Assembly: GCA_963706325.1 (NCBI GenBank)
Contig: CAVPLT010000004.1
Span: 416,001 to 480,000, forward strand
DNA from: an uncultured Nitrospiraceae bacterium
GTDB lineage: Bacteria > Nitrospirota > Nitrospiria > Nitrospirales > Nitrospiraceae
Direction of reading: 5' to 3'
Length of the DNA: 64,000 nucleotides
The translations under genes were made by a program, and so were the position numbers. Shown here piece by piece: positions 10,061-35,566 of the stretch; within the stretch, counting starts at the first letter, position 1, and each line of letters begins with the position of its first letter. The notes under the pieces are model-generated. The model was not told the origin of the DNA. It saw nothing but the letters and a program-made list of their open reading frames with translations, and did not search any database.

Positions 10061-11419
10061 TTAGTTGGAAGGGAGATAGGCCTTCAATTTGGTCAGCAGC
10101 GTCTTGTAATCGATCTGGAGGGTATGCGCGGCTTTGGTTTTGTTGCCGCCGCTGGCTTTTAGCACGCGTTCGATGTGGAGGCGTTCGATCTCCTCCAGTG
10201 GTAACTGCGTCTGATCGATGAAATGGGGGAATGCGGATGACGGCGGGAGCGCCTGTACGACTTCTTCGCGCGTGATCAGACCGGTGTTGAAGCCCAGGAG
10301 CACGATGCGTTCAATGACGTTGCGGAGTTCGCGAACATTGCCCGGCCAACCGTAGGTCGTCAGTAGTTGTAGGCTCTCTGTCGTGAGGGTCCGTGTCGCA
10401 GTCCCGGGGATCCGAAGGCTGTTCAGAATGTGGTTGCTGAGCGCGGGAAGATCCTCCTGTCGTTCCCGGAGCGGAGGAACCCGCAACGTAACAGTGTTGA
10501 TGCGATAGAGGAGATCGTCACGAAATCGACCTTGCAATACGAGTTCCTGCACATCTCGATTGGTCGCGCAGATGATGCGGACATCGGCGCGCAGGGTGCG
10601 TGTGCTGCCGACGGGGCGGTATTCGTTCCGATCGAGAAAGCGCAGCAGTCCCACCTGCATCGGTCCCGGCATCTCCCCGATCTCATCGAGAAACAGCGAC
10701 CCACCCTCGGCGGCGGCGATTAATCCCGGTTTGGCCGTGGCGGCTCCGGTGAATGCGCCCTTCTCGTATCCGAACAACTCGCTTTCCAATAATTCTCGAC
10801 TCACCGCTCCACAGTTGACGGCAAGGCAAGGACCAGGAGCTCTTCGACTGCGCGCGTGAAGCAGACGCGCGACGACTTCTTTTCCGGAGCCGGTTTCTCC
10901 TTGAATGAGCACCGGAGCTTGGGAAGGCGCCACTTGAGCGATTTGAGCGTCCAGCCTCCGCCATATGTCGCTCACACCCTCCACGATCGTATCCTGCCGA
11001 TAGCCTCCATGACGTGCCGCGAGATTCTCCCGTCGCAGCCCGCGAATCGCGCGGAGTTTTGCGAGCGCGGCCTTCACCGTTGCGCCGTCAAAGGGAGTAT
11101 CTTTGACAAGAAAGTCCCACGCGCCATCTTTGATAGCAGCGACGGCATCTTTCACGTCGCCATGGCCGGTCAATACGATCACATCCACATCAGGCTGATG
11201 GTCCTTCACCCAGCGCAACAGGGCTCGACCGTCGAGGCCGGGCATTCTGAGATCGGTGATCACGCAGTCGAACGAAGCATTGCGGAGTCGATCGAGGCCC
11301 TGTTCTCCGCTCCCCACGCTCTCCACTTCGCAGCCTTCTTCGCGGAGCGCCTGTTCTACGATCAGGCGGACAAATTCTTCATCGTCGATAGTTAGGATGT
11401 GCATGCCGTGGATGGTCAC
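10061..11419 (-). CDS. sigma54-dependent response regulator (REC-AAA+-Fis HTH)
   Basis: DLRMP receiver, GETGSGKE, GAFTGA, WPGNVREL. Confidence 0.95.
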   Translation of the reverse strand: MTIHGMHILTIDDEEFVRLIVEQALREEGCEVESVGSGEQGLDRLRNASFDCVITDLRMPGLDGRALLRWVKDHQPDVDVIVLTGHGDVKDAVAAIKDGAWDFLVKDTPFDGATVKAALAKLRAIRGLRRENLAARHGGYRQDTIVEGVSDIWRRLDAQIAQVAPSQAPVLIQGETGSGKEVVARLLHARSRRAPGPCLAVNCGAVSRELLESELFGYEKGAFTGAATAKPGLIAAAEGGSLFLDEIGEMPGPMQVGLLRFLDRNEYRPVGSTRTLRADVRIICATNRDVQELVLQGRFRDDLLYRINTVTLRVPPLRERQEDLPALSNHILNSLRIPGTATRTLTTESLQLLTTYGWPGNVRELRNVIERIVLLGFNTGLITREEVVQALPPSSAFPHFIDQTQLPLEEIERLHIERVLKASGGNKTKAAHTLQIDYKTLLTKLKAYLPSN

Positions 11420-13032
11420 AGAAGGGGTTTCAGGTCATTCCCCGAGAGTGATGGCCGAACTGCGCGAGCTTCGACGCGTTCGGGAAAGGCGATGAAGAAC
11501 TTGCTGCCCGCTCCCGGTGTGGATTCAGCCCAGGTTCGTCCGTAGTGTTTGTCCATGACGAGTTTCACAATCGCGAGCCCAACTCCCGTTCCTTCGTAAT
11601 CCTGAGGACCGTGTAGTCGCTCGAAGAGGCCGAAGATCTTGTCATGCTGCGATGCGTCGAATCCGATGCCATTGTCCTGGACCCAAAGAACGCGCTCCGT
11701 GACGGTCTGCGTTCCGCCGATCGTGATGGTGGGAGACCCGGTTCGGCGCGCGAATTTTGCGGCATTGTCGAGGAGATTGGCAATCGCCTGACGGACACTG
11801 ACCGGCTCGCCATAGAGATCGGCGAAGGGCAATTCAACGTGGACCTTCGGCTTTGGGCCCTGCAGGCCGCTGAATCGGTCGGTGAGAAGGGTGGTGATGA
11901 TCTCCAGAATGTTGAAGCGTTGGCGGGGCAGGTCCTGCTGCTCCAGCCGTGAATATTTGAGTAGAGCGTCGATCATGTGGGTGAGGCGTAGGGCGGAGCG
12001 ACGGATGATATCGATGTGATGACGGATTTCCGGGTCGTTGCCGTCGGCGAATCGTTTTTCAAGGAGGGAGGAGAAACCTTCGATTTCCCGGAGCGGGCCT
12101 TTGAGATCGTGTGCGACGGAATAGGTAAAGGCCTCGAGCTCTTTCGTCTTGCGGTTGGTCGCGGCCGTCTGTTCACGCAGGCTCGTGACCATGGAGGACA
12201 GGGAAGCAGCCAGCGTGCCGACTTCATCACGGCTGGGCCAGGCTTCGAATTGAGCCGTGAGGTCATGGTGGGCAACGCGGTCGGCCGTCACCGACAGTCG
12301 CTGGAGCGGCTGAGCGATCCGTCGATTGACCATGAGATAGATCAGGGCGATCACCAGCCCCAGCACGGTTACGAGGCCAAGCGCAATCAGCCGAGCCTGC
12401 TGCAGCAGCCGATCGCCTTCCACTTTCATTTCGACGTCGATGTCCGTGTGGGCCTGGACCAAGTGATCGAGATCTTCCATGAGTTGGGTCAACAAGATAT
12501 TGGCTTGGATGAAGGGGAGCCGGCTGTCTGCATCAACTGCCTGTGAATGTAAAGCGATCTCCTTCCGTAAGCCATTGAACTCCTGCAAGGCTTGATCGAT
12601 GTGAGCGATGGCTCCGTCCTCTTTCTCCACCAGGTCCACGCGCTCGTGCTGAGTCAACATACCGAATAGGATCGGATGCGTACGCGCTGCATGGGTAGAG
12701 CGATACAGCTCAAGTAACCGACGGAGTCGTTCGTCCTCGGCGGCCAGACGCGAGACGGCCTGATCCGTATCCGCCCCTTTCCCTTGCTCCAGAGAGCGAA
12801 GTGTCAGATCCATTTCGTAGACCGAGCGTTGCATGGTGGCCGCCGTGACGATGGCCGGCACGGTGATGCGTTTGTGGCGGTCGACGTAGCTATTGATGCG
12901 GCTGAGGTACAGCAGGAGAGCCGTAAGGCTCAACGCCAGTAGGCTGAGGATGACTCCGAAGGAGATGAAGAACTTCTGTCCGATCGAGCGGTCTTGGAGC
13001 CAGCGCATGCAGGCCTCGTGGTGAACAGCCAC
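11416..13032 (-). CDS. membrane sensor histidine kinase (periplasmic domain, HAMP, HisKA, HATPase)
   Basis: 2 TM, DEVGTLA HAMP, SVAHDLKGPL, NLLDNA, DNGIGF, GTGVGL; 4-nt overlap with the regulator. Confidence 0.95.
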   Translation of the reverse strand: MAVHHEACMRWLQDRSIGQKFFISFGVILSLLALSLTALLLYLSRINSYVDRHKRITVPAIVTAATMQRSVYEMDLTLRSLEQGKGADTDQAVSRLAAEDERLRRLLELYRSTHAARTHPILFGMLTQHERVDLVEKEDGAIAHIDQALQEFNGLRKEIALHSQAVDADSRLPFIQANILLTQLMEDLDHLVQAHTDIDVEMKVEGDRLLQQARLIALGLVTVLGLVIALIYLMVNRRIAQPLQRLSVTADRVAHHDLTAQFEAWPSRDEVGTLAASLSSMVTSLREQTAATNRKTKELEAFTYSVAHDLKGPLREIEGFSSLLEKRFADGNDPEIRHHIDIIRRSALRLTHMIDALLKYSRLEQQDLPRQRFNILEIITTLLTDRFSGLQGPKPKVHVELPFADLYGEPVSVRQAIANLLDNAAKFARRTGSPTITIGGTQTVTERVLWVQDNGIGFDASQHDKIFGLFERLHGPQDYEGTGVGLAIVKLVMDKHYGRTWAESTPGAGSKFFIAFPERVEARAVRPSLSGNDLKPLL

Positions 13033-16338: not shown

Positions 16339-17094
16339 TTATGATTCTTGTTGTATTTTGATCATGCGGCCGGCCAATAGGTTGGCCGGAATCGCGATAT
16401 CCATTTTTGCAGGCCGTGGCTGCTTTCTGCAGGCCATCATCTTGACGAAGGTATCCTTGTCGACGGAAAGGTTCAGCCGCTCGTTGAATTGCTTTTCCTC
16501 GCGGATGGTGGAAGACACCCGGCCGTTGTAATCGTGGCCGGGGTACAGGATCGTGTCGTCGGGGAATGTGAATAGTTTCCCGCGCACGGATTCGAACAGC
16601 TTCTCCGCTGAGCCGCCCTGCAGATCCGTCCGGCCGTTTCCTCGGATGAAGAGGGCATCGCCTGTGAACAGAGCGCCGGGTAACACATAGCTAGTGCAGC
16701 TGTCCGTGTGACCAGGGGTGGCCAGCGCTTTCATTACGCTGTTGCCGAAGCCCAGCTCTTGCCCATCGTGCAGAAACATGTCCGCACCGGTGACCACGCC
16801 TTCCGCGCCGCCTCCATAGACGATGCGCGCATCGAGGCGATCCTTGATCAGTGAGGCGCCGGTGATATGGTCGGCGTGAACATGCGTTTCTAGGACAAAA
16901 AGAAGCGTCAAGCACAGTTCGCGGGCGATGGTAAGATCGCGGTCGACATTTTCAATGACGGGATCGACAATGACGGCCTGTCCTGACTCTCGGTCGTAGA
17001 TGATATAGGTACGACTTTCAGCCCTGTCGTCGATGTCTTGCTTCTGGTTCACATCCGCCAGAACGGTGACGACATAGGTCTCACTGAGGGCCAT
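16339..17094 (-). CDS. ETHE1-like persulfide (sulfur) dioxygenase, MBL fold
   Basis: LETHVHADHITG, TPGHT, FTGD...GRTD, YPGHDY, EEKQFNERL. Confidence 0.88.
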   Translation of the reverse strand: MALSETYVVTVLADVNQKQDIDDRAESRTYIIYDRESGQAVIVDPVIENVDRDLTIARELCLTLLFVLETHVHADHITGASLIKDRLDARIVYGGGAEGVVTGADMFLHDGQELGFGNSVMKALATPGHTDSCTSYVLPGALFTGDALFIRGNGRTDLQGGSAEKLFESVRGKLFTFPDDTILYPGHDYNGRVSSTIREEKQFNERLNLSVDKDTFVKMMACRKQPRPAKMDIAIPANLLAGRMIKIQQES

Positions 17095-17350
17095 GACGTG
17101 CACTCCTTAGGCGTTTTCAAGTTTTACGGACATTCGCAACGCCCAGGAGTACCGCGTCGTAGGCATAATTGTCCAGATTGCGGATGAGTCGGCATGGGCA
17201 TTGGGATTTCAGGCATCCGCATTGAATCGGCTACGGATGAGTCGCAGCCTAACCGGCTGAGGCCGACCTGGAGAGAAAAAGGATTCGCATGGTTCGAGTC
17301 ATTGGCTCACATGGCAGATTTGTCGAGGGGAGTTCAGCGGTTGCGCGAGG

Positions 17351-17740
17351 CTAGGACTGCGCCTCGCCTTGCCACAGCAGGTCATACCCCAGTTCCTTCG
17401 TGTCGGAGCAGAGCGCCGAGACCTTGGCGAACGTGTCTCGGAACAGTTGGTTGGCGTGGGATTGTTCGTGCTCCTCAAATGAGCGCCAATAGGTCACGAT
17501 CACATAGTGCTCGGCGGACTCTCTTGACGTATTGAGAGAGCCTTCGTCGGAGACGAAGCCGGAGAACTTGAACACTTGTCCGGCTATGAACCCGCCTTTG
17601 TCTCCGCCATAGGTCTCCTTGACGACACTGCACATTTGACCAACGGCCAGCTCCACATCATCAAAAGTCACGCCCGGTTTCAGAGTGACGCTGTTGAATA
17701 ACATTTTGGCGCCGAAGGGGATCGTAATCGGTCCGAACAT
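17351..17740 (-). CDS. 129-aa dimeric alpha/beta-barrel protein resembling one domain of sulfur oxygenase reductase
   Basis: GGAGG RBS; VGQMC37SV, YW-x5-H91-x3-H95, E116-x2-Y. Confidence 0.6.
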   Translation of the reverse strand: MFGPITIPFGAKMLFNSVTLKPGVTFDDVELAVGQMCSVVKETYGGDKGGFIAGQVFKFSGFVSDEGSLNTSRESAEHYVIVTYWRSFEEHEQSHANQLFRDTFAKVSALCSDTKELGYDLLWQGEAQS

Positions 17741-17818
17741 GGCAGCCTCCGAAGATCGAATGGATAGAACCATGCTGTGGGTAGCGAATGCAGTTTTTTT
17801 CTGAAAGCTGATTCTACC

Positions 17819-18796
17819 CTAAATCCTCGGTTGGTGGATCGCGTCGATCAAATGTTTGGGCTCAACGGTGGTATTACGCATTTGTGCTTGGAGCACATTG
17901 CTGCCTGGCGGCACGCTGTAGGTCAACCAGACATTCCCTCCAATGATCGATCCTTTACCGATGGTTATGCGGCCTAGGATTGTCGCGCCTGCATAGATCA
18001 CTACGTCGTCCTCGACGATCGGATGGCGGGCGTTGCCTTTGAGCAGCATGCCATTGTCACCTTCCTGAAATCGTTTTGCGCCGAGGGTGACGGCTTGATA
18101 GAGCCGCACGCGCTCGCCGATGATCGTGGTTTCGCCGATTACGACGCCGGTGCCGTGATCGATGAAAAAATAGCCTCCGATGGTCGCGGCCGGGTGAATG
18201 TCGATCCCCGTTGTGGAATGCGCGATATCGGAGATGAGACGCGCCGGCAGGCGCGCGCCCAACTCGTAGAGCGCGTGCGCGACGCGGTAGTAAATGACGG
18301 CGGTCATGCCGGGATAACAAAGCAGAATTTCGGAAGAACTGGTGGCCGCGGGATCTCCCTGGTAGGCCGCTTGCAAATCAGTGAAGAGCCGCGCACGAAT
18401 GGTCGGGAGCTGCGCCGCGAACTTGCTCGTGATGTCGATGGCCTTCTGTATCGAGGGGGCCTCGTCCTGCTCATCCTGTGCCGATATGAAGAGGAGTCCC
18501 CGGCGAACTTGATCCTGCAACATACCCAGTGTCAGGTGTAATTGGTCGCCGACAAAAAAGTCGATGTTCGACTCATTCACGTCCGATCGGCCGTAATGAC
18601 TGGGGAACAGGACGGCGCACACACCATCCAAGACTTCCATCAATGCTTTGCGGGACGGCAATTCACGCATACGGCCTTGATGGCGCACATTATGCTCGAC
18701 TTCACGCGAGTGCCGCAGCTCTTCCACGACCTGGTCGATATTCCAGGTCGATGGCGTTGCCGCCAGAGGTTGAATCGAGTTCCGGTCCATGAACAT
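17819..18796 (-). CDS. cysE: serine O-acetyltransferase (SrpH/EpsC type)
   Basis: GDPAA, GIDIHP, FIDHGTGVVIGET, RHPIVED hexapeptide repeats. Confidence 0.95.
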   Translation of the reverse strand: MFMDRNSIQPLAATPSTWNIDQVVEELRHSREVEHNVRHQGRMRELPSRKALMEVLDGVCAVLFPSHYGRSDVNESNIDFFVGDQLHLTLGMLQDQVRRGLLFISAQDEQDEAPSIQKAIDITSKFAAQLPTIRARLFTDLQAAYQGDPAATSSSEILLCYPGMTAVIYYRVAHALYELGARLPARLISDIAHSTTGIDIHPAATIGGYFFIDHGTGVVIGETTIIGERVRLYQAVTLGAKRFQEGDNGMLLKGNARHPIVEDDVVIYAGATILGRITIGKGSIIGGNVWLTYSVPPGSNVLQAQMRNTTVEPKHLIDAIHQPRI

Positions 18797-18824
18797 TCTG
18801 CCCTTTCAGTCCAGCCTGTTCGGC

Positions 18825-20603
18825 CTAATATCTCTTGAGTTGATGCAGGGCACCCACTAAGGCGTCAATTTCATCGTGTGTGTTGTAGAAAGCCAGCGAG
18901 GGGCGCACCGTGCCCTCCAATCCGTACCGCCGTACTGCCGGTTGGGCGCAGTGATGACCCGCACGGACTGCGATGCCATGTTGGTCCAGATGCCGGGCGA
19001 CTTGTTCAATAGAAAGGCCTTCCATTACGAAGGACAGAACGCTGGCCTTTGAGGCCGCGGTCCCGATAGGGCGTAGACCCCGAACCGACGAGAGGGCGTC
19101 AGTGGCGTACAGGAGCAACTCGTGTTCGTAGGCTGCGATGGCAGGCATCCCTACCTGGCTCAGGTAGTCGATGGCGACTCCAAGACCGATGACTTCGGCG
19201 ATAGCCGGCGTGCCCGCCTCGAATTTCTGAGGACTGCTTTGATAGGTCGTTTTTTGAAAAGACACATCCTTGATCATATTCCCACCGCCCTGCCAGGGAG
19301 GCATGGCTTCGAGCAGGTCGGCCTTCCCGTATAGCACGCCGATTCCGGTCGGTCCGAAGATCTTGTGGCCTGAAAACGTAAAAAAATCACAGTTCATTGC
19401 CCTGACGTCGATTGGCATGTGGGGCGTCGATTGCGCGCCGTCCACCAAGACGGGCACTCCCTGCGCATGGGCCATCGCAATCAGCTGTTCGACAGGGTTG
19501 ACGGTCCCCAAGGCATTGGACACTTGTGTGATGGCCACCAATTTGGTACGAGGGCCCAGGAGAGCTGCGAACTCATCGAGCAGCAATTCGCCTGCATCGT
19601 TGATCGGCGCGACCCGAAGCGTTGCGCCGGCCTGCTCTGCCAGCATTTGCCAGGGTACGATGTTCGCGTGATGTTCCATCGCAGTGAGGAGGATTTCATC
19701 ACCTCGGCCGACGTGAGCCCGCCCATAAGTCTGCGCCAACAAGTTAATGGCTTCGGTGGTCCCCCGAGCAAAGACGATCTCCTTCGAATCCGCAGCGCCG
19801 ATGAATCGCCGCACCTTGTCTCGTCCGCCTTCGTACAAATCGGTCGAATGTTGCGCCAAGGTGTGGGCGCCCCGGTGGATGTTGGAGTAGTCCCGGCTGT
19901 AAAATTTTGACGTGGCGTCGATTACGGCCTGCGGTTTCTGTGTCGTGGCTGCATTGTCCAGCCAGATAAGCGGTTTCCCGTTTACGTGGCGTTGCAACAG
20001 CGGAAAGTCCCGTCTGATGGCATCGATGTTCAGCGAAGATAGATTCAACCCATGCTTTGGAACGGGCGTAGCCTGCGGTGCTCTATGCGTGGCTCCATGA
20101 GATCCGCGCAGGAAATAGAAATCCGGGGTAAACAGGTCCTCATGGTGCTGCGAAGCAAATCCGAGGTCGGTGCTTTTTGCCCAATAGGGATCGGTGTGAC
20201 CGTTGCGTTCCCCATGTGGCTGGACGGGTGACGAGGCATGTCTATGGGTCTCGCCGCCGCCGTTGCATCGTGGCTCGCCGAAGGGATGGGTTTCGCTGGA
20301 GTTGTGGTCATGCCCACCCGATCCTGTGCCGGACCCCGCTGCCAGGGGGCCTTGTAGTCCAGGGTGCACAGGGGGGTGGGTGTCTGGTGTCGCGGATGGA
20401 TAGCCACCAGCTAGGCCCGGATACTGCGGTGTGCCCGTTGGAACCGCGGAGGCAAAGCTTTCTTCCCTTATCCCGTGCTGAAGAGCCGTCGGGTGAGACC
20501 CCTCGGCTGATTCCGCAAAGAATTCGTTTGCTAGCTTGGTGAGCAGCTCTGTGCCGAATGGATCAGGGCCGATACCCGTCATATTGTCCGGTGCTTGTGT
20601 CAT
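18825..20603 (-). CDS. cysteine desulfurase (SufS-like) with disordered N-terminal encapsulin cargo-loading region
   Basis: LDNAATTQKP, FSGHK (PLP Lys), RAGHHCAQP; ~190-aa Pro/Gly/His-rich N-extension with LTKLANEFF. Confidence 0.95.
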   Translation of the reverse strand: MTQAPDNMTGIGPDPFGTELLTKLANEFFAESAEGSHPTALQHGIREESFASAVPTGTPQYPGLAGGYPSATPDTHPPVHPGLQGPLAAGSGTGSGGHDHNSSETHPFGEPRCNGGGETHRHASSPVQPHGERNGHTDPYWAKSTDLGFASQHHEDLFTPDFYFLRGSHGATHRAPQATPVPKHGLNLSSLNIDAIRRDFPLLQRHVNGKPLIWLDNAATTQKPQAVIDATSKFYSRDYSNIHRGAHTLAQHSTDLYEGGRDKVRRFIGAADSKEIVFARGTTEAINLLAQTYGRAHVGRGDEILLTAMEHHANIVPWQMLAEQAGATLRVAPINDAGELLLDEFAALLGPRTKLVAITQVSNALGTVNPVEQLIAMAHAQGVPVLVDGAQSTPHMPIDVRAMNCDFFTFSGHKIFGPTGIGVLYGKADLLEAMPPWQGGGNMIKDVSFQKTTYQSSPQKFEAGTPAIAEVIGLGVAIDYLSQVGMPAIAAYEHELLLYATDALSSVRGLRPIGTAASKASVLSFVMEGLSIEQVARHLDQHGIAVRAGHHCAQPAVRRYGLEGTVRPSLAFYNTHDEIDALVGALHQLKRY

Positions 20604-20607
20604 CGCA

Positions 20608-21579
20608 TCACCTCTTCGGATAGACATAGTCGTGGTAGAAGTTCACGGATACGTTATCCAGACGCGCGATGGCATCTTCTGTTAGCACCGCGGTTGAGAA
20701 ATAGCGAGTCACGAGATGTGAGGCAATGCCGTGCTCATTCGTTCCCATGTAACGGATGGAAAGACCCGGCTCGACTTCTCCCGTTACCCCGCCCTTTTGC
20801 AAGCCGACGACACCTTGCTGTGGTTCACCGACGCGCAGGAGGAGGATGCTGGTCTTGCCTCCCTTGTCGATTTCCAATTTGTTGCTTGGAAGTAAGGGAA
20901 TTCCACGCCATGTTATGAATGGGGAACCGTAAAAATTCACGGTGGGTGGCGGCACCCCTCGCCTGGTCGCTTCACGACCGAAGGCGGCGATGGCTTTGGG
21001 GTGGGCAAGGAAGAACGCGGGTTTTTTCCATACCAGGCTTAGAAGCTCGTCGAAGTCATCTGGCGTGGGTGTGCCTTTCCGGCTGTTGATCCGTTGTCCC
21101 GGTACGACTTCCTTCAAGAGCCCGAAGTTCGGATGGTTAATCAACTCCCACTCCTCTTGCTCCTTAACCGCTTCTACCGTTAGCCGCACTTGCTCCCGCA
21201 ACTGATCGATGCGATTGCTGTACAGATCCGTCACGCGGGTATGGGTGTGGACAACTGTCTGGATACTACTGAGATGATATTCACGTGGATTCACTTCATA
21301 ATCGACAAAGGCCGTGGGGAGCTTTGGTTCGCCGCCATCGACGGTCAGCAGGTCGACATGCTCTTCTCCAAAATCGTTCTCCGGCGTGCCTTTAGCTGCC
21401 TTCGCCACCCTGTTCACGCGATAGACTCCGCCATCGATATTCACCCAGGGGAGAAGTTTGCGCAGCCACCGCGGGGTGATCTGCACCATCTGTGGAACTG
21501 TGACCGTCGCGGTTGCCAGATTGCGCGCTGCTTTGGCGCTCAAACTCTGTTGTCCTGATGCACTGGATCGTTCGCTCAT
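20608..21579 (-). CDS. family 2A encapsulin shell protein (SrpI/MMP-I type)
   Basis: AARNLAT...PQM..ITPRWL..LPW, YRVNR, DYE.NPREY, TRVTDLY, FGLL; ~323 aa without a cNMP-binding insertion. Confidence 0.93.
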   Translation of the reverse strand: MSERSSASGQQSLSAKAARNLATATVTVPQMVQITPRWLRKLLPWVNIDGGVYRVNRVAKAAKGTPENDFGEEHVDLLTVDGGEPKLPTAFVDYEVNPREYHLSSIQTVVHTHTRVTDLYSNRIDQLREQVRLTVEAVKEQEEWELINHPNFGLLKEVVPGQRINSRKGTPTPDDFDELLSLVWKKPAFFLAHPKAIAAFGREATRRGVPPPTVNFYGSPFITWRGIPLLPSNKLEIDKGGKTSILLLRVGEPQQGVVGLQKGGVTGEVEPGLSIRYMGTNEHGIASHLVTRYFSTAVLTEDAIARLDNVSVNFYHDYVYPKR

Positions 21580-21706: not shown

Positions 21707-22222
21707 TTATGGCTTCATCCCGTGCCCAGGAATAATCGTGAAGACACGCCGGTCGAAGCGCAGGATTCCGCTGTGTATGAGATGTTTTCTGGCAAAATAG
21801 CAGGCGTCGTTGATGAGAAATTTCGCCGGAAAATTATCCACTCCATCGATCACCACCGAATAATTACGAACAAGATCCAAAGCGTTGGCGGCCATAAACC
21901 GATCCTCAAACAGCACCACTTTGACGTCCGGATTCAGTGCCTCGATCTTTTCCTTGGCCGAGAGGACCTTGGGGCGTCCCACATCGGGCGTGTGATGAAT
22001 GACCTGTCGCTGAAGATTGGAGAGATCAACGACGTCGTTGTCGATCAGTCCGATGGTGCCCACGCCGGCTGCAGCCAGGTACAGAGCTGCCGGTGAACCG
22101 AGGCCACCGGCGCCGACGATCAGAATGCTTGCCTGCGAGATTTTGTTTTGCCCCTTGCCTCCCACCTCCGGAAGCAAGATGTGGCGGCTATATCGGGTGA
22201 TTTGTTCGTCGAAAAAATTCAT
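21707..22222 (-). pseudogene. moeB: C-terminally truncated MoeB/ThiF sulfur-carrier adenylyltransferase
   Basis: RYSRHILL, GAGGLGSP, SNLQRQ present; stops at 171 aa before the CxxC Zn motifs and active Cys. Confidence 0.75.
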
Positions 22223-22283: not shown

Positions 22284-23213
22284 TTAGATATTGAAATATT
22301 TCTCCATGCTGATGTATCGCTCGCCCGTATCGCAGATCACCGTCACCACGCTTTTACCTGGACCGAGTTCCTGTGCCAGCTTCTGGGCGGCATAGACGTT
22401 TGCGCCGGACGAGATGCCTCCCAGGAGGCCCTCTTTCTTTGCCAGGAGCTTGGCGGTCTGGTGGGCCTCATTGTCGGTGACCGTGATCACCCGATCGAGG
22501 ATCTTCTGATTCAACACCTGCGGGATAAACCCCGCGCCGATGCCCTGAATTTTGTGGGGGCCTGGCGCGCCGCCTGAGAGAAGCGGAGATCCGCTCGGCT
22601 CCACCGCAACGATGTGAATGTGTGGATTGCGTTCCTTGAACACTTCCCCGCAGCCGGTGATGGTCCCGCCTGTGCCCACCCCCGCGACGAAGGCGTCGAA
22701 CCGGCCGTCCAGGGCCTCCCAAATCTCCACGGCCGTCGTCTGCCTATGCGCAGCCGGATTAGCTGGATTGGAAAACTGGTCGGGCATGAAGCAAGAGGGA
22801 TGCTGCGACACAATCTGCTCCGCTTCCTTGATAGACCCTTTCATGCCATCGGCGGCGGAGGTCAGCACCAATTGCGCGCCATACGATGAGAGGAGGCTCG
22901 CGCGCTCCGCGCTCATGCTCTCCGGCATCACCAGGATCACCGGATACCCACGGACTGCCGCGATGAGCGAGAGGCCGATCCCGGTATTTCCGCTGGTCGA
23001 CTCGACGATCGTCGTGCCGGGTTTGAGCCGACCGCTTCGTTCCGCTTCACTGATCATGCTGAGGCAGATTCGGTCCTTGACGCTTCCCCCAGGGTTGGAG
23101 AATTCGACCTTGGCATAGATAGTCGCCCCGCCCGCTGGCGAGAGCCGGTTCAGTCGAATCAGCGGCGTGCGACCGACCAGGTGTGTAATGTTCGGTTGTG
23201 CTCGCTGCGTCAC
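22284..23213 (-). CDS. cysK: cysteine synthase
   Basis: PGGSVKDR, STSGNTG, GVGTGGT, HKIQGIGAGF, DTGERY. Confidence 0.95.
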   Translation of the reverse strand: MTQRAQPNITHLVGRTPLIRLNRLSPAGGATIYAKVEFSNPGGSVKDRICLSMISEAERSGRLKPGTTIVESTSGNTGIGLSLIAAVRGYPVILVMPESMSAERASLLSSYGAQLVLTSAADGMKGSIKEAEQIVSQHPSCFMPDQFSNPANPAAHRQTTAVEIWEALDGRFDAFVAGVGTGGTITGCGEVFKERNPHIHIVAVEPSGSPLLSGGAPGPHKIQGIGAGFIPQVLNQKILDRVITVTDNEAHQTAKLLAKKEGLLGGISSGANVYAAQKLAQELGPGKSVVTVICDTGERYISMEKYFNI

Positions 23214-23447: not shown

Positions 23448-23867
23448 TCAAATGAACAACGAGGTCTCGGCGCCGGCTGTCAGTGCCAGAATCGCCGGCA
23501 ATCCCATGACGCTGTCAACCTGCTTCGTGACGGCGTCCGCGCTCACACCCATGTATTCAAGGCCCGCGCTGCAGGCCACCAGTCGGAAGTCACCGACCGC
23601 TCGGGCTTCCTGGAACATCTCAGACACGCGCGGGACTTTCTTTTCCTTCAGCAGCCGACGGACTTGCTCCGCAGATGCCTCATGCTCGGATGAAAAGTCG
23701 ACCTCATCGATTCGTCCTTCCGCCAGTTTACGAATCGTCCAGAAGAGCAGCACCACCGTGACGTCTTTTCCCATCGCGGCCGCAGTCAGTCCCAACGTGC
23801 CGACCTGGTGGAGGGTGTCGTAGGTGGCGTTGTGCGCAAAGATCACGAAACGTGGTTTCTGTGTCAT
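23448..23867 (-). CDS. DsrE/DsrF/DrsH-like sulfur relay protein
   Basis: [27 protein letters not shown] overlap with the upstream gene. Confidence 0.8.
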
Positions 23868-24946
23868 GACGCAACCTTCTGCGAGCCGAGCCGTCCGTAC
23901 CGGATCAGCCGATCGCGGACGATATTGCGGCTGATGCCGAGGAGTCGGGCGGTCCGGAGTTGATTCCGATCGCAATACTCGTACGCGGCATGAAAAATCG
24001 TGTCATCAATCAGTTGATACAGCTGAGGCCGTTCTTCCTGGAACAACTGCTGCAAGGTATCGGTGAGGGCAACCAGTGACCGGCCGGCCGTCTCTGCCCC
24101 GACTGCGACGTGAGGGCGTGAGCTTGGCAAACGCAGATCCGCCGGGCTGATTTCTGTGCCCGGGCAGACTACCAACGCGTGATGAATCGTATTTTCAAGC
24201 TCGCGGATATTGCCCGGCCAAGGGTAGGTAAGCAGTCGGTCTGTGGCTTCCGCCGAGAGTCGGGCATCTGTAAAACCCAGTCGGGGCCCGTATATCGAGA
24301 GGAAATAGTGAGCCAACGGCAGAATGTCGCCGGGACGCTCTCGCAACGGCGGGAGGTTCACGGTGGCGACATGCAGTCGATAGTATAGATCCTCGCGGAA
24401 CCGTCCTGCCGCCACGGCTTCGTCGAGGTTCACGTTCGTCGCCGCGATCAATCGCACATCGATGGCAATCGGTTGGCGTGATCCGATGCGTACCACCTCC
24501 CGCTCCTGGATCACCCGCAGCAGTTTGGCTTGAAGCGTCAGCGGGAGATCGCCGATTTCATCCAGAAACAACGACCCGCCCTCGGCGGTTTCGAACCAGC
24601 CGGCCTTGGTGGTGATGGCGCCGGTAAAAGCGCCGCGTTCATGACCGAAGAGTTCGCTTTCCATCAGGGACTCAGTGATCGCCGCGCAGTTGACCGCCAC
24701 GAACGGACCGGTGCGTCGAGCACTGAGTTCGTGAATGTGGCGCGCGATCAGCTCCTTGCCGGTGCCGGTTTCGCCGATAATGAGCGCCGTGGCCTGGCTG
24801 GGGGCAATCCGCTGAACCAGCTCCAGGAGGGCCTTTGATTTGTCGTCTTCGAAAACCAGGCAACTCGCCCTGATCGAAAGGGCGAGCGTTGTCGGGTCGG
24901 AAGCGGCTAATACCTTTAGCGCGCGTTGGCTGTTCGTCGTGGTCAC
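23864..24946 (-). CDS. SfnR-like sigma54 enhancer-binding protein without a receiver domain
   Basis: [12 protein letters not shown]-terminus, [22 protein letters not shown]-terminal HTH; GTG start with AAAGGA RBS. Confidence 0.85.
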
Positions 24947-24962
24947 GTTGTCCTTTCTGGCC

Positions 24963-26030
24963 CTATTCGACCGGCTCGGGAAACACGCGAAGCGACTTCG
25001 GCCGGATGAACACACGTTCGCCGGTGCTGAGGGCAAGATCCCGCCATTGTTCCTGGCTGACCTCCCCTTCGATTACCTCGCCGTTGTCGGTCCGTATCAT
25101 TTCCAATCGGGCGACGGCTCCCACTGGTTGTATTCGACCGACGGTGGCCTCGATGGCCCCGGTTCCATCGGAGAGGCGGTGGAGATCGATTTCATGCGGC
25201 CGCACATAACCGATCGCCGGCCCATCAGAAATGCCGCCTTGCTCGCGAAGCGCCAGGTCGAGATCCCCGACCTGCACCCGGCCTTCATGGACCCGGCCGT
25301 GAAACAGATTCACGCCGCCCAGAAAGTCATAGACGAACGGGCTGGCTGGATGTTCATAGACCTCCTCGGGAGTTCCGATCTGTTCGATACGTCCCTTATT
25401 CATGACGACCACCCGATCCGCCACCTCCAGGGCCTCGTCTTGATCATGGGTCACGAAGACGCTGGTCACGTGGAGGTTCGTGTGAAGTCGCCGGAGCCAG
25501 CGCCGGAGTTCCTTGCGGACCTTGGCATCGAGCGCGCCGAAGGGCTCATCGAGCAAGAGGACCGTCGGCTCGACGGCCAATGCGCGCGCGAGGGCGACTC
25601 GTTGGCGTTGCCCTCCAGATAGTTGTCGTGGATAACGATCTCCCAACCACTCCAGCTGCACAAGTTTGAGTAATTCACGCACCTTGGCGTCGATGGTGTC
25701 CTTGGGTGGCCGCGTGGCTCTCGACCTCACCCTCAGACCGAACGCGACATTCTCAAAAACGGTCATATGACGAAACAGGGCGTAATGCTGAAAGACGAAC
25801 CCCACGCCACGTTCGCCAATATGGCGATCGGTGACTTCCTGATCGTTGAGCAGAATCGAACCGGTCGTCGGGCCCTCCAAGCCGGCCAAGATTCTCAGCA
25901 GGGTGGTCTTGCCGCATCCCGAAGGCCCAAGCAGGGCAATCAGCTCACCGGTGTTGACGCGCAGATTGATCTCCTGCAGCGCGGTAAAGGTTCGGAAGGT
26001 CTTCGTCACGTTGCGTACTTCGATGCTCAT
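24963..26030 (-). CDS. cysA: sulfate/thiosulfate ABC ATPase
   Basis: [43 protein letters not shown]. Confidence 0.95.
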
Positions 26031-26902
26031 GGACGGTGCTCCTTCTGTTCAGCCGACGAAGTCCATTCCACCAGGCTCTTGGCGGCCAAGGTGACCACAG
26101 ACAGCAACGCCAGCAGTGAGGCGACTGCAAAGGCGGCCACATCGTTGTATTCGTTGTAGAGAATCTCGACGTGGAGCGGCATCGTATTGGTTTCGCCGCG
26201 AATATGCCCGGATACGACGGACACCGCTCCGAATTCTCCCATCGCTCGTGCATTGCAAAGAATGACGCCGTAGAGCAGGCTCCATTTGATTGACGGGAGC
26301 GTCACGCGCCAGAAGGTTTGCCAGCCGGTTGCGCCTAGCACGAGCGCCGCTTCTTCCTCGTCCTTGCCTTGCGCTTGCATGAGCGGAATCAGTTCGCGTG
26401 CGATAAAGGGAAACGTGACAAAGATGGTAGCCAGCACGATGCCCGGCACCGCGAAGATGATCTTGATATCGTGCGCGGCGAGCCAGGGCCCGAGGGCACC
26501 TTGCAAGCCAAAGAGCAGCACATAGATCAATCCCGCGACCACCGGTGACACGGAGAAGGGAAGATCGATCAAGGTGATAAGACCTGCTTGCCCCAAAATT
26601 CGAATTTGGCAATGGCCCATGCGGCCGAAATGCCGAAGACGACATTCAGCGGGAGGGCAATGGCCGCCGCCAAAAGCGTGAGCTGAATGGCGGCGATCGC
26701 ATCCGGGTCTTGAAACGAGGCCAGGTAGGTGCCAAGGCCATGCTTCAGCGCTTCGAACAGGATGGCCGCGAGCGGCACGAACAGAAATAGGCCCAGGAAT
26801 GCCAACGAAACCACGATTAGCCCCAGCGGACGAGGGCCGGCTCGGCCCGGTCGAGGCGATACGGGGAACTCTTTTCTCTAGGCTCAAGACACCGGTGGTC
26901 AT
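26027..26902 (-). CDS. cysW: sulfate ABC permease CysW (apparent frameshifts ~26845, ~26822, ~26582)
   Basis: [29 protein letters not shown]-terminal part split across frames. Confidence 0.85.
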
Positions 26903-26919
26903 ATTCCCTCCAAGTCCGT

Positions 26920-27756
26920 TCAGAATGCTTCCTGCCGTCTGCCACTCCACCACTGCAGTCCGTTGATGAGTAGGAGCAGAATGAACGAAGCCACCAGCAT
27001 CACGACCGCAATGGCCGTGGCGCCGGCATAATCGTATTGTTCCAGTTTCGTGATGATGAGCAGCGGCGTGATTTCCGTTCGCATCGGCATGTTGCCGGAG
27101 ATGAAGACGACGGAGCCGTATTCTCCGACCGCTCGGGCGAAGGCCAACGTAAAGCCGGTCAGCAGGGCCGGCAACACTTCCGGAAAGATCACCTCGGTGA
27201 AGGTTTTCCAGCGGTTGGCTCCCAGCTGGCGGCGGCCTCTTCGATCTCCTTCTCGAGATCTTGCAGCACCGGTTGGACAGTCCGCACCACGAAGGGTAAG
27301 CCGATAAAGGTCAGGGCTACCAGAACTCCCAACGGTGTAAAGGCGACTTTGATCCCCAGCGGTTCCAGATACTGCCCGATCCATCCGTTGACCGAATAGA
27401 TGGCGGTCAGCGCGATTCCGGCAACGGCCGTCGGAAGGGCAAAGGGCAGATCGACGAGCGCGTCCACGAGCTTCTTGCCGGGAAACGAGTATCGCACGAG
27501 GACCCAGGCCATGATCGACGCCGAAGACCGCATTGATGAGGGCGGCCAGAAAGGAGGCCCCAAACGTGAGCTGGTAGGAAGCGACCGTCCGAGGGTCTGC
27601 GACGGCCGACCAGAACTGGTCCCAGCTCAGGGTGGACGTCTTGACGAACAGACCGGTCAACGGGATCAGCACGATCAGGCTGAGGTAGAACAGCGTGAAT
27701 CCGAGCGTGAGGCCGAATCCGGGAAGCACGCTAGGTTGTTTCAAGACGGTTGACAT
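26920..27756 (-). CDS. cysT: sulfate ABC permease CysT (compensating frameshifts ~27519, ~27225)
   Basis: [10 protein letters not shown]-terminus; [13 protein letters not shown] in the alternate frame 27189-27563; [11 protein letters not shown]. Confidence 0.85.
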
Positions 27757-27781
27757 GATCTCTCCTTCTGATGCCTGTTGC

Positions 27782-27804
27782 GCCGGTCACTGGAGGTGAC
27801 CGGC
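27782..27804 (-). terminator. intergenic hairpin between sbp and cysT
   Basis: GCCGGTCAC-TGGAG-GTGACCGGC, perfect 9-bp stem. Confidence 0.5.
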
Positions 27805-27832
27805 ATTCATCACTACGACCTGCCGGCTGCGC

Positions 27833-28864
27833 TCATTTTCTGGTACGCGAAATCTCCTGATAGATCTGGTCGAACAATCCCCCGTCGGCAAAATGGACCT
27901 TGTTGGCTTTGTGCCAGTCGCCGACGATGTCCTTGAGGGTGAAGAGCGTCACCTTAGGAAACTGATCGGCATATTTGGCGGCCACTGCCGCCGATTGTGG
28001 ACGATAGTAATGTTTGGCCGCGATCTCTTGCCCTTCTTCGGAGTAGAGATATTCGAGATAGGCTTGAGCGACTTCTTTTGTGCCCTTCTTGTCCGCCACC
28101 TTGTCCACGACGCTCACGGTGGGCTCTGCGAGAATGCTGGTCGGCGGCACCACGATCTCGAATTTGTCTTTGCTCAATTCGGTTCCGCCCAAGAGGATCT
28201 CGTTTTCCCAATTGATGAGCACATCGCCGATGCCCCGCTCCACGAAGGTGGTCGTGGCGCCCCGCGCGCCGGAGTCGAGCACCGGCACGTTCCGATAGAG
28301 GCGGGAGAGAAAATCCCTGGCGGCGGTTTCATCGCCGCCGAATTTCTTGAGCGCATAGCCCCAGGCGCCTAGATAGTTCCAGCGTGCGCTGCCCGAAGTT
28401 TTCGGGTTGGGTGTGATGACGGAGACGCCGGGCTTGACCAGGTCGTCCCAGTCCTTGATGCCTTTGGGATTCCCTTTGCGGACCAGAAAAATGATGGTCG
28501 AGGTGTAGGGTGCGCTGTTATGGGGTAGCCGAGCTTGCCAATTTGCAGGGAGCAAAGCCGATTTTTCGGCGATGGCATCGACATCGTGCGCCAGCGCCAG
28601 CGTCACGACGTCAGCTTGCAGCCCGTCGATGACGGCCCGCGCCTGTTTGCTCGATCCACCGTGGGATTGCTTGATGGCAATCGTTTGACCGGTTTTCGTC
28701 TTCCATTCTTTGATGAAGGCGGTGTTGAACTCCTGATACAGCTCCCTTGTCGGGTCGTACGACACGTTCAGCAATGACACTGTCTCTGCCGCATCAACCG
28801 GTGCAAATGCGGCCAGAACTACCACTACCGACAATGAACTGATCACCTGTTTGAACGTCATCAT
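27833..28864 (-). CDS. sbp: sulfate-binding periplasmic protein
   Basis: [33 protein letters not shown]. Confidence 0.95.
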
Positions 28865-29041
28865 GATCTCCTTGGTTCCGACTGAGGTATGTTTGTTCGA
28901 TCAGGTCCACGACCTGTGTACAGTCTCCTGATCGAAGGTGTTCGAGAGAAAAAGGTCGCTTCGATGGTCAACAGTGATCTGGCGTGCACATGCCTGAGCA
29001 TGAGCGGGCATTGAATAGAATCGTTGCCCGATTGAGTCGGT

Positions 29042-30076
29042 TCATTTTGCTTGCCCCACTTCCTCTACGGCTTTCGTCCAGGCCCCTTGCGGACTGAACA
29101 GTGCCGCGAAGATCTGGTCCCACCCTCCAAGGTCTCCGATCGTGAACACATGGGGAGGGTGGGTGAAGGCGGCGGCCGAGGTCTTCACCACGTTCTCGTT
29201 TGTCGGGCGAAAACCGAACTCAACGAAGGCCTGTTGGGCTTCCTCGCCGTTCAGAAAGAGCACGAATGCATCGGCAAGGTCCCGGACATGATGACGGTCG
29301 GCGTTCCGATCGACGACCGCGATGGGGTTTTCGACCACAACGGTCTCAGCAGGAAAGATCAACTCATAAGGGCGCCCCTGTTTGATCCGCGGCAGTAATT
29401 CGTTTTCATAGGTGACAATGACGTCGCCCACGCCGCGCTCGAAGGTCGTGACGGATTCGCGACCGCTCTTATCCATGACTTTGACGTTCCGTTGCACCCG
29501 TTTGACGAGATCGACGGCGTGCTGATCGACCGCGGAGCCGGCAAGACCTTTTTGCTTTCCCTGGTTGAGGCCCGCGCCGTAGATCGCAATCACATCCCAC
29601 ATCGCTCCTCCGGAGGTTTTCGGACTGGGATAGAGGACTTCGACACCGGGCTTGGTGAGATCCTCCCAACCGTGAATGGCCTTGGGATTTCCTTTTCGAA
29701 CACCCAATGCGACGATTGAAGTCGTCACGATGCCTTTTTGAGCGCCTTGCTTCCAGTCGTAGGTCACGAGACCGGCCTTCACCAGTTGATGGAGATCGCT
29801 TTCCAACGACAGCGCCGCGATGTCCGCATCGAGGCCCCCCACAATCGCGCGCGCTTGCGCGCCCGATGCGGCAAAGGAGCTTCGAATCTGAATCGTTTCC
29901 CCTGTCTTCTGTTTCCACTGCTGGACGAAGGCAGGGATGATTCGTTTCTCGTAGGCTTCCTTCGGCACGCTGTAGGCGGCGAGCAGGAGTTCTCTAGTGT
30001 CAGCCCCGGCGATGGCCGGCAGGATCGTGAAAAAAGATATCAGCGCCGTGAGGCGGGTGATGGTTCTGGCGTTCAT
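29042..30076 (-). CDS. second, divergent sulfate/thiosulfate-binding protein (Sbp/CysP family)
   Basis: SFAASGAQARA, PSPKTSGGAMW, TYENE, GGWD. Confidence 0.88.
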   Translation of the reverse strand: MNARTITRLTALISFFTILPAIAGADTRELLLAAYSVPKEAYEKRIIPAFVQQWKQKTGETIQIRSSFAASGAQARAIVGGLDADIAALSLESDLHQLVKAGLVTYDWKQGAQKGIVTTSIVALGVRKGNPKAIHGWEDLTKPGVEVLYPSPKTSGGAMWDVIAIYGAGLNQGKQKGLAGSAVDQHAVDLVKRVQRNVKVMDKSGRESVTTFERGVGDVIVTYENELLPRIKQGRPYELIFPAETVVVENPIAVVDRNADRHHVRDLADAFVLFLNGEEAQQAFVEFGFRPTNENVVKTSAAAFTHPPHVFTIGDLGGWDQIFAALFSPQGAWTKAVEEVGQAK

Positions 30077-30448: not shown

Positions 30449-31183
30449 TTACGGATGGGGTTGAGAAACTTCTTTGTTTCGATCCAAGCCAGGTTGGGCC
30501 GGCATATTGCTCAGGGCATCGCGATATCGAATCTGCAGTTCCTCACGCTGATCAGGCGCGAACAGGCTGCCGGCGGACCTCACTTTTGCGAGGTATTCTT
30601 CCGGTTCGAAGGTCACGTCGAATTCCGCGGAGGCCTCGGGCACGTTAGGCAGTTGGCGTTCGTATTTGCCGATATCCGGCCCGGGACCATGCTGGTCGTG
30701 GGCTTCGCTGAGGGAGAGATAAAGAATCTCGTCCCTTACCGAGATCCAACCGGTGGTTGTTTCTTCATTGCCTTGATCGGTTGGATGGCTCAGATGGAAA
30801 TAGATACGTTCTGACGGTGCCGCTTGCGCCAATGCCTTAGAGAGAGGATAGGCTAGGATGTTGATTTCCTCATCTCGAAAGACCCTGCGCCGGTCCGATG
30901 GGCCGGCAAAGAGTCGATGAAGAGCGTTGCGACGTTCCCATGACCTCACCCCGCGCAGCAAGGTGCCGACTTCAGTCGCCGTGAGTGAAGCCGGGTGGGT
31001 ATTGGAGGTCGAGTCAGGGTCCGGCTCGAGCAACACGGTGTTCAAGCCAGATTGATGAATGGTCTTCTTGGGTGGCAACGGCTTGCTTGCGCATCCAGCG
31101 AGCAGGGATAGTCCCACAATTATTGCACTCACGCGGAGAGACCATGTAATTGATGGATTTTGATTCTTTTGGACCGACTTCAT
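30449..31183 (-). CDS. lipoprotein, paralog of 37744-38421
   Basis: LAGC lipobox; HPASLTATEVGTLLRG, ERIYF, TGWISVRD. Confidence 0.8.
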   Translation of the reverse strand: MKSVQKNQNPSITWSLRVSAIIVGLSLLAGCASKPLPPKKTIHQSGLNTVLLEPDPDSTSNTHPASLTATEVGTLLRGVRSWERRNALHRLFAGPSDRRRVFRDEEINILAYPLSKALAQAAPSERIYFHLSHPTDQGNEETTTGWISVRDEILYLSLSEAHDQHGPGPDIGKYERQLPNVPEASAEFDVTFEPEEYLAKVRSAGSLFAPDQREELQIRYRDALSNMPAQPGLDRNKEVSQPHP

Positions 31184-32004
31184 CGCTGTCCCTCCTGGGT
31201 CTGAGCCACGCCTGCATCGGAAGATACGCGGTCAAACCCGTATTGTTGTAAGAGTTCCTGCACCGGGGGTGTGAGCAAGAACTGGACAAAATCACCGGCC
31301 CCCGAGATATTTTTAGCGGTCCATGGAAGCGCGACTCCGTACTGGACCGGTTCATGCGATTCAACCGGGGTGGTATCCAATATGCGGACTTTCTTGCTTA
31401 AGGCCGCATCCGTTCGATAGACAATGCCGACCTCGGCTTCGCCATTCGCGACGAGATCCAATACGGCTCGGGAGTGCTCGCCAAAGACATATTGGGATTT
31501 GAGCTTAGGCTCCAGTTGACTACTTTTCAAAAACTGCGCCGCGACTTTTCCTACAGAGGATGTTTTCGGATCACCTATGGCCAGTCGCCGAACCGAGGCG
31601 CTGTGTAGATCCTGAATGGATGTGATTGAAGCGGGGAGGGTCGCGCCGGTTATCAACACCAGCGAGGTGCCGGCATAGATGCGTTTGCTGCCATCTAGGA
31701 TCAGCCCTTTCTTCTGGAGCTGATCAATCTCGTCGACCAATGAGGGTAGAAACACATCGACCGGGGCACCCTGTTCAATTTGATTCCGCAACGTTTGGGA
31801 AGGTCCATAAATAATTCGAAGATTCGTCTCCGGATACTGTGTTTCATAGAGCGGGAGGACCTTTCGAAAGGCTTCCCTCAGACTGTTCGCGGCGACGATG
31901 GTCAGGGTTTCCGGCTGTGCCTGCGCGGGCTGCAGAGTCCACCCGGATATGACTAGGGCGCTCACAATAAAGGCTATTCCCAATAAACGGTTTCGTGCTC
32001 GCAT
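31180..32004 (-). CDS. modA: ModA-family oxyanion-binding protein
   Basis: VAANSL, QIEQGAPVDVF, GEAEVGIVYRTDA, QYGF. Confidence 0.85.
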   Translation of the reverse strand: MRARNRLLGIAFIVSALVISGWTLQPAQAQPETLTIVAANSLREAFRKVLPLYETQYPETNLRIIYGPSQTLRNQIEQGAPVDVFLPSLVDEIDQLQKKGLILDGSKRIYAGTSLVLITGATLPASITSIQDLHSASVRRLAIGDPKTSSVGKVAAQFLKSSQLEPKLKSQYVFGEHSRAVLDLVANGEAEVGIVYRTDAALSKKVRILDTTPVESHEPVQYGVALPWTAKNISGAGDFVQFLLTPPVQELLQQYGFDRVSSDAGVAQTQEGQR

Positions 32005-32043
32005 GATGTCCTCCTGGTAGTCCCGATAACCTGCCATGGCCTG

Positions 32044-33660: not shown

Positions 33661-33736
33661 TACTGAGACTCCCGGTTGAATGTGAACAATGAAAGCACTT
33701 CCAGTAAAGATGAGGCTTCTAGATCCTCCTACGATC

Positions 33737-33801
33737 AATGTATTTTAAACATCTGTAATCCGATGAGGTATCAAATACATTAACTTGAATAATATTGTCA
33801 A
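33737..33801 (-). promoter_or_regulatory. AT-rich promoter region of the left (sulfate) arm
   Basis: TTGACA at 33801-33796; AATGTAT...ATACATT inverted repeat. Confidence 0.4.
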
Positions 33802-35556: not shown

Positions 35557-35566
35557 CCCTGCCGCT

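Follow-up and report, generated by a model that had tools for sequence, protein, structure and literature searches.

A half-length relative of sulfur oxygenase reductase at the end of a predicted desulfurase encapsulin operon in Nitrospiraceae

The last gene of a predicted family 2A encapsulin operon in an uncultured Nitrospiraceae bacterium (assembly GCA_963706325.1; positions 416,001 to 480,000 of contig CAVPLT010000004.1, a stretch of 64,000 nucleotides that was analysed whole and is termed the window) encodes a 129-residue protein that in predicted fold and conserved residues is like one half of a sulfur oxygenase reductase (SOR), although its length and scores place it outside the SOR family. 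We term it half-SOR. The reading that we favour, at a probability of roughly 0.6, is that a known type of compartment has had a probable iron-dependent sulfane-sulfur enzyme appended to it that would act outside the shell, with the persulfide dioxygenase gene that follows being a loose add-on. The sole novelty is that half-SOR is here coupled to a desulfurase encapsulin, in a lineage whose members do not oxidize sulfur.

The genes in question are all on the minus strand and, in gene order, encode a family 2A encapsulin shell protein (20608..21579; 323 residues from the ATG at 21579, or 339 from an upstream GTG at 21627), a cargo cysteine desulfurase of the SufS class (18825..20603, with an alternative ATG at 20627), an EpsC/SrpH-like serine O-acetyltransferase (17819..18796), half-SOR (17351..17740) and a type I (ETHE1-like) persulfide dioxygenase of a Nitrospira clade (16339..17094). 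All five open reading frames (ORFs) are intact, each has a plausible ribosome-binding site, and the successive gaps from shell to dioxygenase are 4, 28, 78 and 256 bp. The nearest named homologues are from Nitrospira and other Nitrospiraceae. No terminator-like or sigma-70-like site was called in the 256-bp spacer between half-SOR and the dioxygenase (17095..17350), promoter and terminator scans gave chance-level counts (6 versus 6.5 expected and 11 versus 15 expected), and a scan with a sigma-54 consensus gave no site upstream of the cassette. An earlier note on this DNA, made from the sequence alone, had described the five genes as an encapsulin sulfur-storage cassette extended with sulfur-oxidizing enzymes. 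The co-directional genes are indeed present between 16339 and 21579 and their identities and sulfur theme stand; the five form the tail of a longer same-strand island that the note did not include (two sbp genes, cysTWA, a sigma-54 activator gene, dsrE, cysK and a truncated moeB).

Judged from sequence, the encapsulin, desulfurase and acetyltransferase genes constitute an ordinary family 2A operon within this sulfate-uptake and cysteine-synthesis island. The encapsulin scores 461.5 bits with NF041162 (cut-off 380) and matches PF19307 (E 1.3e-105), with no match to a cNMP-binding family, in keeping with an SrpI-type shell; it also scores 460 with the 2B model (cut-off 400), over positions 198-449 in two stretches only. 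The desulfurase reaches 773.7 bits with NF041166, just below the cut-off of 800, and 558 bits with TIGR01979 (cut-off 475). Its catalytic domain begins near residue 200, GHK and HHCAQP motifs are present, and the N-terminal loading extension of about 200 residues contains LTKLANEFF and PDFYFLRG; loading motifs are described for the SrpI cargo in the accessible text of PMC8049743, and an adjacent desulfurase with a long loading domain and both conserved motifs places the system in family 2A. The acetyltransferase matches NF041874 (163.4 bits, cut-off 150), PF00132 and PF06426, completing the operon arrangement described in the accessible part of PMC10836720. By analogy with characterized homologues, a T=1 shell would assemble here, load the desulfurase and store elemental sulfur (S0). 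The earlier note was correct that the window contains no rhodanese gene (none of the 8 genome-wide matches falls there), but its absence is unremarkable because rhodanese co-occurs with only 48.7% of 1,273 published 2A loci (PMC8049743 supplement 2), so that about half of family 2A operons are without it. The published table of top 2A neighbours, which covers families above ∼22% only and places 82.5% under 'no Pfam', lists none of PF07682, PF03992 and PF00753 (PMC8049743).

Half-SOR itself has no Pfam or NCBIfam match above cut-off, and its relationship to SOR rests on its wider family. A homologue search returned 3,498 candidates, 3,495 of them relatives. Members of a more distant clade go by the name 'ligand-binding protein SH3' in Thioalkalivibrio, Thiolapillus and Thermocrinis, among others. 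One distant member (P0205) aligns to SOR 6m35 (E 0.002), with its HxxxH motif and Glu falling on His86, His90 and Glu114. The top PDB match of a broad profile built from 39 sequences of both clades (A2) is residues 6-107 of the same SOR (E 8.2e-5); matches to the C-terminal part of triosephosphate isomerase are interleaved below it (E 0.002-0.4) and are noise. The NCBIfam SOR model NF047630 is matched by 25 of the 39 profile members at E≤0.1, as opposed to 5 of 39 for the heme-oxygenase model. His91 and His95 of half-SOR align with SOR iron ligands through the profile and Glu116 through P0205, and Cys37, which occupies the corresponding helix in similar surroundings, is likely to be the equivalent of SOR Cys31. 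In SOR the distance between the Cys and the iron is 9.5-13 Å. According to the accessible text of PMC7398979, alanine mutants of SOR Cys31, His86, His90 and Glu114 are inactive and Cys31 has been observed as a persulfide. Cys37, His91 and His95 are kept in 120 of 120 close homologues (Glu116 in 119) and in all 118 near-full-length members among 119 sequences fetched from the distant clade (Glu116 in 117).

The earlier label 'SOR-like' thus holds for the four SOR-essential residues, which line up and are near-invariant, but not for chain length or direct similarity. At 129 residues half-SOR has under half the length of the ∼310-residue two-domain SOR chain, ending where the SOR chimney segment (125-152) starts. 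It falls below the PF07682 and NF047630 cut-offs, as do the best-scoring members of its family (E 9.5e-5 for Pfam and 1.5e-5 for NCBIfam). A search for longer forms scored 8000 candidates and gave 3 matches, each apparently a chimera or a frameshift, which is weak evidence. Across 151 genomes of the phylum PF07682 has no match over cut-off, and, apart from ABM clusters, the ESM Atlas yielded only clusters of the family itself that are unnamed or carry the 'SH3' label.

The AlphaFold model of half-SOR is a ferredoxin-like domain with a pLDDT of 88.5 (at least 80 in every 10-residue block). SOR 6qpa aligns to 124 of its 129 residues (Z 10.2, rmsd 3.5), the widest coverage listed; SOR is absent among the matches listed by Foldseek and by a second structural alignment. 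A two-copy model with iron scored 0.86 versus 0.01 for the best control, with 96% agreement in contacts between runs and pLDDT values of at least 87, and places Cys37 at the dimer interface. Of true dimers 20 of 30 score as high as half-SOR, as does 1 of 23 monomers, and its resemblance to barrels of known structure may raise the score. The possibility that half-SOR is a second shell cargo was rejected, as it has no disordered extension and the desulfurase is the sole cargo of the Acinetobacter baumannii 118362 system in the accessible text of PMC10836720.

Among 299 genomes of one proteobacterial class (reached through a betaproteobacterial handle, after removal of the centre and one unscored genome), the half-SOR gene occurs in 54 of the 121 with dsrA and/or soxB (45% of sampled sulfur oxidizers) versus 2 of the 178 with neither. 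By genotype it is found in 47 of 85 genomes with both genes, 3 of 7 with dsrA only and 4 of 29 with soxB only. The contrast is large, although its p-value is not to be trusted, since Fisher p-values on genome samples overstate significance where kin are not independent. A few individual loci also have sulfur-related neighbours. The half-SOR gene directly precedes ATP sulfurylase in 5 of 80 loci (L109, L110, L112, L115 and L179) and a sulfur globule protein gene in one of 80 (L129), is convergent with soxB in G416:C96:292-2528, and follows a 2-thiouracil desulfurase gene in L069. An apparent neighbour family in 60 of 80 loci was rejected as an artefact of chained antisense ORFs.

Within the family Nitrospiraceae, 11 of 201 genomes carry the shell gene, 68 carry half-SOR and 7 carry both, and half-SOR lies beside the shell in 4 of the 11 shell-bearing genomes, mostly of one clade. 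The other ten family shell loci were viewed over about 9.5 kb on either side (one contig being only 5.6 kb). Desulfurase and acetyltransferase genes follow the shell gene in all ten, and half-SOR directly follows the acetyltransferase in three. Genomes from at least two genera share the co-directional position 78 bp behind the acetyltransferase. Among the best 80 of 542 loci chosen by half-SOR, which may overlap the family sample, four are shell-linked and one has the dioxygenase. In a quick tree (130 columns; 6 of 82 loci, not matched by the pattern, were omitted) one branch holds 9 of 11 island-type copies (SH-aLRT 87, not starred), so that the link of half-SOR to the shell probably arose once or a few times. 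The tie is therefore lineage-limited, and the co-occurrence with family 2A shells implied by the earlier note survives in part: half-SOR is next to the shell in three of ten other loci, but most of its carriers have no shell, and in the proteobacterial sample it is found in none of the four shell-bearing genomes (of 301).

We propose that sulfate would be imported and cysteine made by the acetyltransferase and CysK, both of whose genes are present, and that the encapsulated desulfurase would strip sulfur from the cysteine and deposit S0 in the shell, as characterized homologues suggest. A free-standing half-SOR gene would have become the last gene of the operon in one Nitrospiraceae lineage. 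Its product is most likely a soluble homodimer with a mononuclear iron held by His91, His95 and Glu116, and would take up sulfane sulfur on Cys37. Acting outside the shell on soluble persulfide or polysulfide, it may either detoxify these species or return sulfide and sulfite, which could be reused by CysK and by assimilatory reduction. The dioxygenase gene would have been placed behind half-SOR recently and in a narrower lineage, its product serving as a general sulfane-sulfur scavenger that is not dedicated to the compartment. Half-SOR is a probable candidate sulfane-sulfur enzyme, by analogy with SOR for both its iron binding and its activity.

A number of observations weigh against this proposal. 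The half-SOR protein of the window has no SOR match on its own, its single-sequence PDB search gave a chance match only, and a first family profile (A1) had no PDB match. Among 29 near-full-length divergent representatives (of 150), Cys37, His91, His95 and Glu116 are kept in 23, 26, 24 and 22, respectively, and Cys37 is one column away from SOR Cys31 in the HMMER alignment. Generic ABM-fold monooxygenases rank above SOR in the structural search (best Z 13.6), and the match to 6qpa falls on the non-catalytic C-terminal half of SOR. The host genome has neither dsrA nor soxB, and the association with sulfur oxidizers therefore does not explain the presence of half-SOR in 68 of 201 Nitrospiraceae. 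In 160 loci the genes directly beside it mostly have no connection with sulfur: around members of the distant clade in 80 metagenome loci, housekeeping genes predominate (77 of 104 neighbour representatives scanned), and no neighbour family recurs in more than 15 of 80 Nitrospira-rich loci. In the family, 61 of the 68 half-SOR genomes have no shell, and half-SOR occurs in 6 of 10 shell versus 61 of 190 shell-less genomes (p 0.09, kin not independent).

These last points bear on a possible, if doubtful, alternative, that half-SOR reached the end of the island in a single event and is functionally unconnected with the shell, serving instead in general sulfide or polysulfide stress or being a non-sulfur ABM enzyme (a cofactor-free or heme-degrading monooxygenase). 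The many carriers without a shell, the single clade to which most island copies belong and the lack of half-SOR nearby at seven of the ten other shell loci are all as expected of such a hitch-hiker. So is its persistence in two close relatives (L001 and L002) that have lost the shell block, L002 having a broken dioxygenase gene right behind half-SOR. The top structural scores of ABM folds and the five weak heme-oxygenase matches would fit a non-sulfur function; the far more frequent matches to the SOR model, the near-invariant Cys and 2-His-1-Glu set and a distribution that tracks sulfur oxidation genes argue against it, and the retention of the 78-bp spacing in more than one genus argues against an accidental position. 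Should its place beside the shell be fortuitous, the half-SOR family, often mislabelled 'ligand-binding protein SH3', would still be a small soluble candidate sulfur enzyme.

A bolder form of the favoured reading, which we hold to be unlikely, is that the 129-residue protein is a minimal homodimeric SOR, the unfused ancestral form of that enzyme, recruited in these Nitrospira to the encapsulin operon, where it would convert sulfane sulfur that exits the shell to sulfide and sulfite, for CysK and the acetyltransferase encoded in the same island to re-fix into cysteine. If true, it would be the first enzyme shown to remobilize encapsulin-stored sulfur, and would supply a missing S0-activating enzyme in many Dsr/Sox sulfur oxidizers.

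It is quite improbable that half-SOR instead substitutes for rhodanese, being mainly a sulfur acceptor or carrier whose Cys37 would receive a persulfide at the shell pore, or close to it, for transfer to DsrE, ThiS/MoeB or CysK, with the iron site secondary. Rhodanese is the proposed remobilizer in other 2A operons in the accessible parts of PMC10836720 and PMC10925157, which also state that the route by which sulfur is released from desulfurase encapsulins is unknown. The persulfide seen on SOR Cys31, the lack of a rhodanese gene in the window and the dsrE, moeB and cysK genes just upstream are consistent with a carrier role. Against it, the three iron-ligand positions are conserved as strongly as the cysteine, Cys37 lies at the dimer interface of the model, and most family shell loci are without half-SOR, and DsrE is the better-conserved carrier candidate (9 of 10 loci).

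The dioxygenase was correctly recognized in the earlier note as ETHE1-like. It has the metallo-beta-lactamase fold, its best PDB match is 4ysb (E 3e-61), and it is nearest to type I enzymes. Alignment to 4ysb and 5ve3 reveals a 47-residue-spaced motif set (THVHADHIT, H132, D149, R158, D160, H190, Y192 and R209) in which the THxHADH motif and the iron ligands H74, H132 and D149 are intact; most residues of the second sphere are retained as well. Residues equivalent to R139, Y173, R190 and P211 of the glutathione site of the Acidithiobacillus caldus enzyme are kept (R158, Y192, R209 and P231). The equivalent of K212 is Ala232, with a Lys one residue later, and is Ala in 7 of 7 aligned Nitrospira-clade sequences; those of C87 and C224, surface cysteines that are both essential in the Acidithiobacillus enzyme in the accessible text of PMC6060420, are Gly and Ala. 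Together with L189-L207 the gene at 16339-17094 belongs to a Nitrospira ETHE1-like clade in which the glutathione site is altered, Ala being invariant where other enzymes have Lys212, and a C-terminal Cys is lacking. No match to gshA, gshB, GCS2 or bshC was found in the 96%-complete host genome, in which controls were detected, and the clade therein raises a separate question of substrate.

Dioxygenase genes occur in 44 of the 201 family genomes in varied surroundings. Eight of the ten other shell genomes carry one, compared with 35 of 190 shell-less genomes (kin not independent), which is the one result favouring a functional tie to the shell. However, the dioxygenase gene is unlinked to the shell in all eight and adjoins it at none of the ten loci, and the complete five-gene unit recurs at none of these 10 loci, nor anywhere in two sets of 80 loci each that were selected by half-SOR. 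The dioxygenase is thus a local neighbour and not a conserved part of the cassette, and the extended cassette of the earlier note fails for this gene. In the accessible text of PMC10836720, the largest pore of the Acinetobacter shell is 6 Å and 10 mM glutathione did not reduce the S0 stored there. Half-SOR and the dioxygenase would therefore be unable to reach luminal sulfur directly, and it is doubtful that the dioxygenase has access to shell sulfur by its canonical route, because the host has no match to a glutathione or bacillithiol synthesis gene and glutathione did not dissolve the shell sulfur. The proposal that all five genes form one operon in which half-SOR and the dioxygenase jointly remobilize shell S0 to sulfite and sulfide, for which the intact co-directional genes, the spacer free of called terminator-like sites, the dioxygenase iron ligands and the genome-level enrichment speak, is highly improbable, as none of the four shell-linked loci among the best 80 of 542 has the dioxygenase, L002, with the only other half-SOR–dioxygenase pair seen, lacks the shell and has a disrupted dioxygenase, the Lys212 equivalent and both essential cysteines are replaced, the pore would exclude proteins and glutathione, and the failure to recur together with the lack of glutathione synthesis genes leaves the circuit unsupported as a conserved module.

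The remainder of the island lies upstream on the minus strand. A MoeB/ThiF-type E1 gene (21707..22222), which encodes 278 residues in relatives, stops after residue 165 because a deletion has removed about 330 bp. It is preceded by genes for cysteine synthase A (CysK; 22284..23213; TIGR01139, 441 bits over 351), a DsrE/DsrF-like sulfur-carrier protein (23448..23975; PF13686, E 5e-8; true start probably internal) and a sigma-54-dependent activator without a receiver domain (23864..25036; PF00158, E 6e-71). The dsrE gene precedes the shell in nine of the ten other family loci, the tenth contig ending first, and the receiver-less activator, which we take to resemble sulfate-starvation activators of the SfnR type, is conserved at most of them. 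The sulfate ABC transporter genes (cysA, cysW, cysT and two for sulfate-binding proteins; 24963..30076; NF008105, TIGR00968 and TIGR00971) include five single-base indels in cysT and cysW (26030-27756) relative to three relatives, near 27516, 27224, 26846, 26825 and 26578, which are either assembly errors or decay of sulfate transport in this genome. A histidine kinase and response regulator pair (10061-13032, minus strand) behind the island is also found at most related loci, with or without a shell. By the look of the translations, two divergent sets of candidate molybdate-type binding and porin-like proteins, and a candidate helix-turn-helix/periplasmic-binding regulator, flank the sulfate genes (30449-44000), and a plus-strand pair (59499-62715), comprising an outer-membrane transporter-like ORF and then one with a haemagglutinin-like N-terminal domain, resembles two-partner secretion. 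A second cluster elsewhere in the genome (G000:C4:624300-629800, minus strand) has cysK and moeB and, from translations, ThiS-like, threonine-synthase-like, MoaD-like, second moeB and JAMM-like genes, and is probably a sulfur-carrier route.

In the largely open-access literature searched, we found no paper on an encapsulin with desulfurase and SOR or on 'ligand-binding protein SH3', and, in titles and abstract beginnings, no mention of either a single-domain SOR or a 2A encapsulin from Nitrospira; the supplement of PMC10836720 (1,462 operons) may list such loci. In a host without dsrA or soxB, the locus unites in one predicted operon a strongly conserved, unnamed protein with the SOR residue set and a defined source of S0. 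Therefore, one heterologous expression experiment can address both activity and release.

The core of the locus closely resembles the SrpI/CyD system of Synechococcus elongatus PCC 7942 and that of A. baumannii 118362, as described in the accessible text of PMC8049743 and PMC10836720, in having a shell without a cNMP-binding domain, an adjoining desulfurase with a long loading extension and both motifs, and an adjoining serine acetyltransferase; its ABC-transporter and cysteine-synthase neighbours are likewise all in the published neighbourhood table. It differs in having no linked rhodanese (as in about half of such operons), in the DsrE, MoeB and sigma-54 activator genes upstream, and in half-SOR as the last gene with, in this genome, the dioxygenase behind it. 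The dioxygenase shares with type I enzymes (human ETHE1, 4chl; Myxococcus xanthus, 4ysb; A. caldus, in the accessible part of PMC6060420) the THxHADH motif, the 2-His-1-Asp ligands, equivalents of R139, D141, H171, Y173 and R190, and a single-domain length without rhodanese fusion. In contrast, K212 is replaced by Ala and C87 and C224 by Gly and Ala, the N-terminus is distinct, and the host has no match for glutathione synthesis, which makes the persulfide substrate uncertain. Half-SOR resembles ABM dimeric barrels (RslO4, 7bio; SnoaB, 3kg0; IsdG/IsdI; CT0912, 3gn6) in size and dimer type, and these include its best structural matches (Z 13.6 and 13.2). However, identity is 10-20%, 94-107 residues are aligned (116 for CT0912 and 124 for SOR), and in sequence profiles the Cys/His/His/Glu set points to SOR. 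With SOR (PF07682 and NF047630; 6m35, 2cb2 and 6qpa) it shares a ferredoxin-like alpha+beta barrel and a TFW/TYW-x-HxxxH helix with a downstream Glu and an upstream Cys at matching spacing, and two chains paired as in the predicted homodimer would together restore the eight-stranded barrel for which SOR uses two fused domains. Unlike SOR, with one active site per barrel, half-SOR would have two potential sites; it has a single Cys (C111) near the SOR C101/C104 region, and nothing that corresponds to the chimney segment or to the second domain, from which SOR builds its hollow 24-mer.

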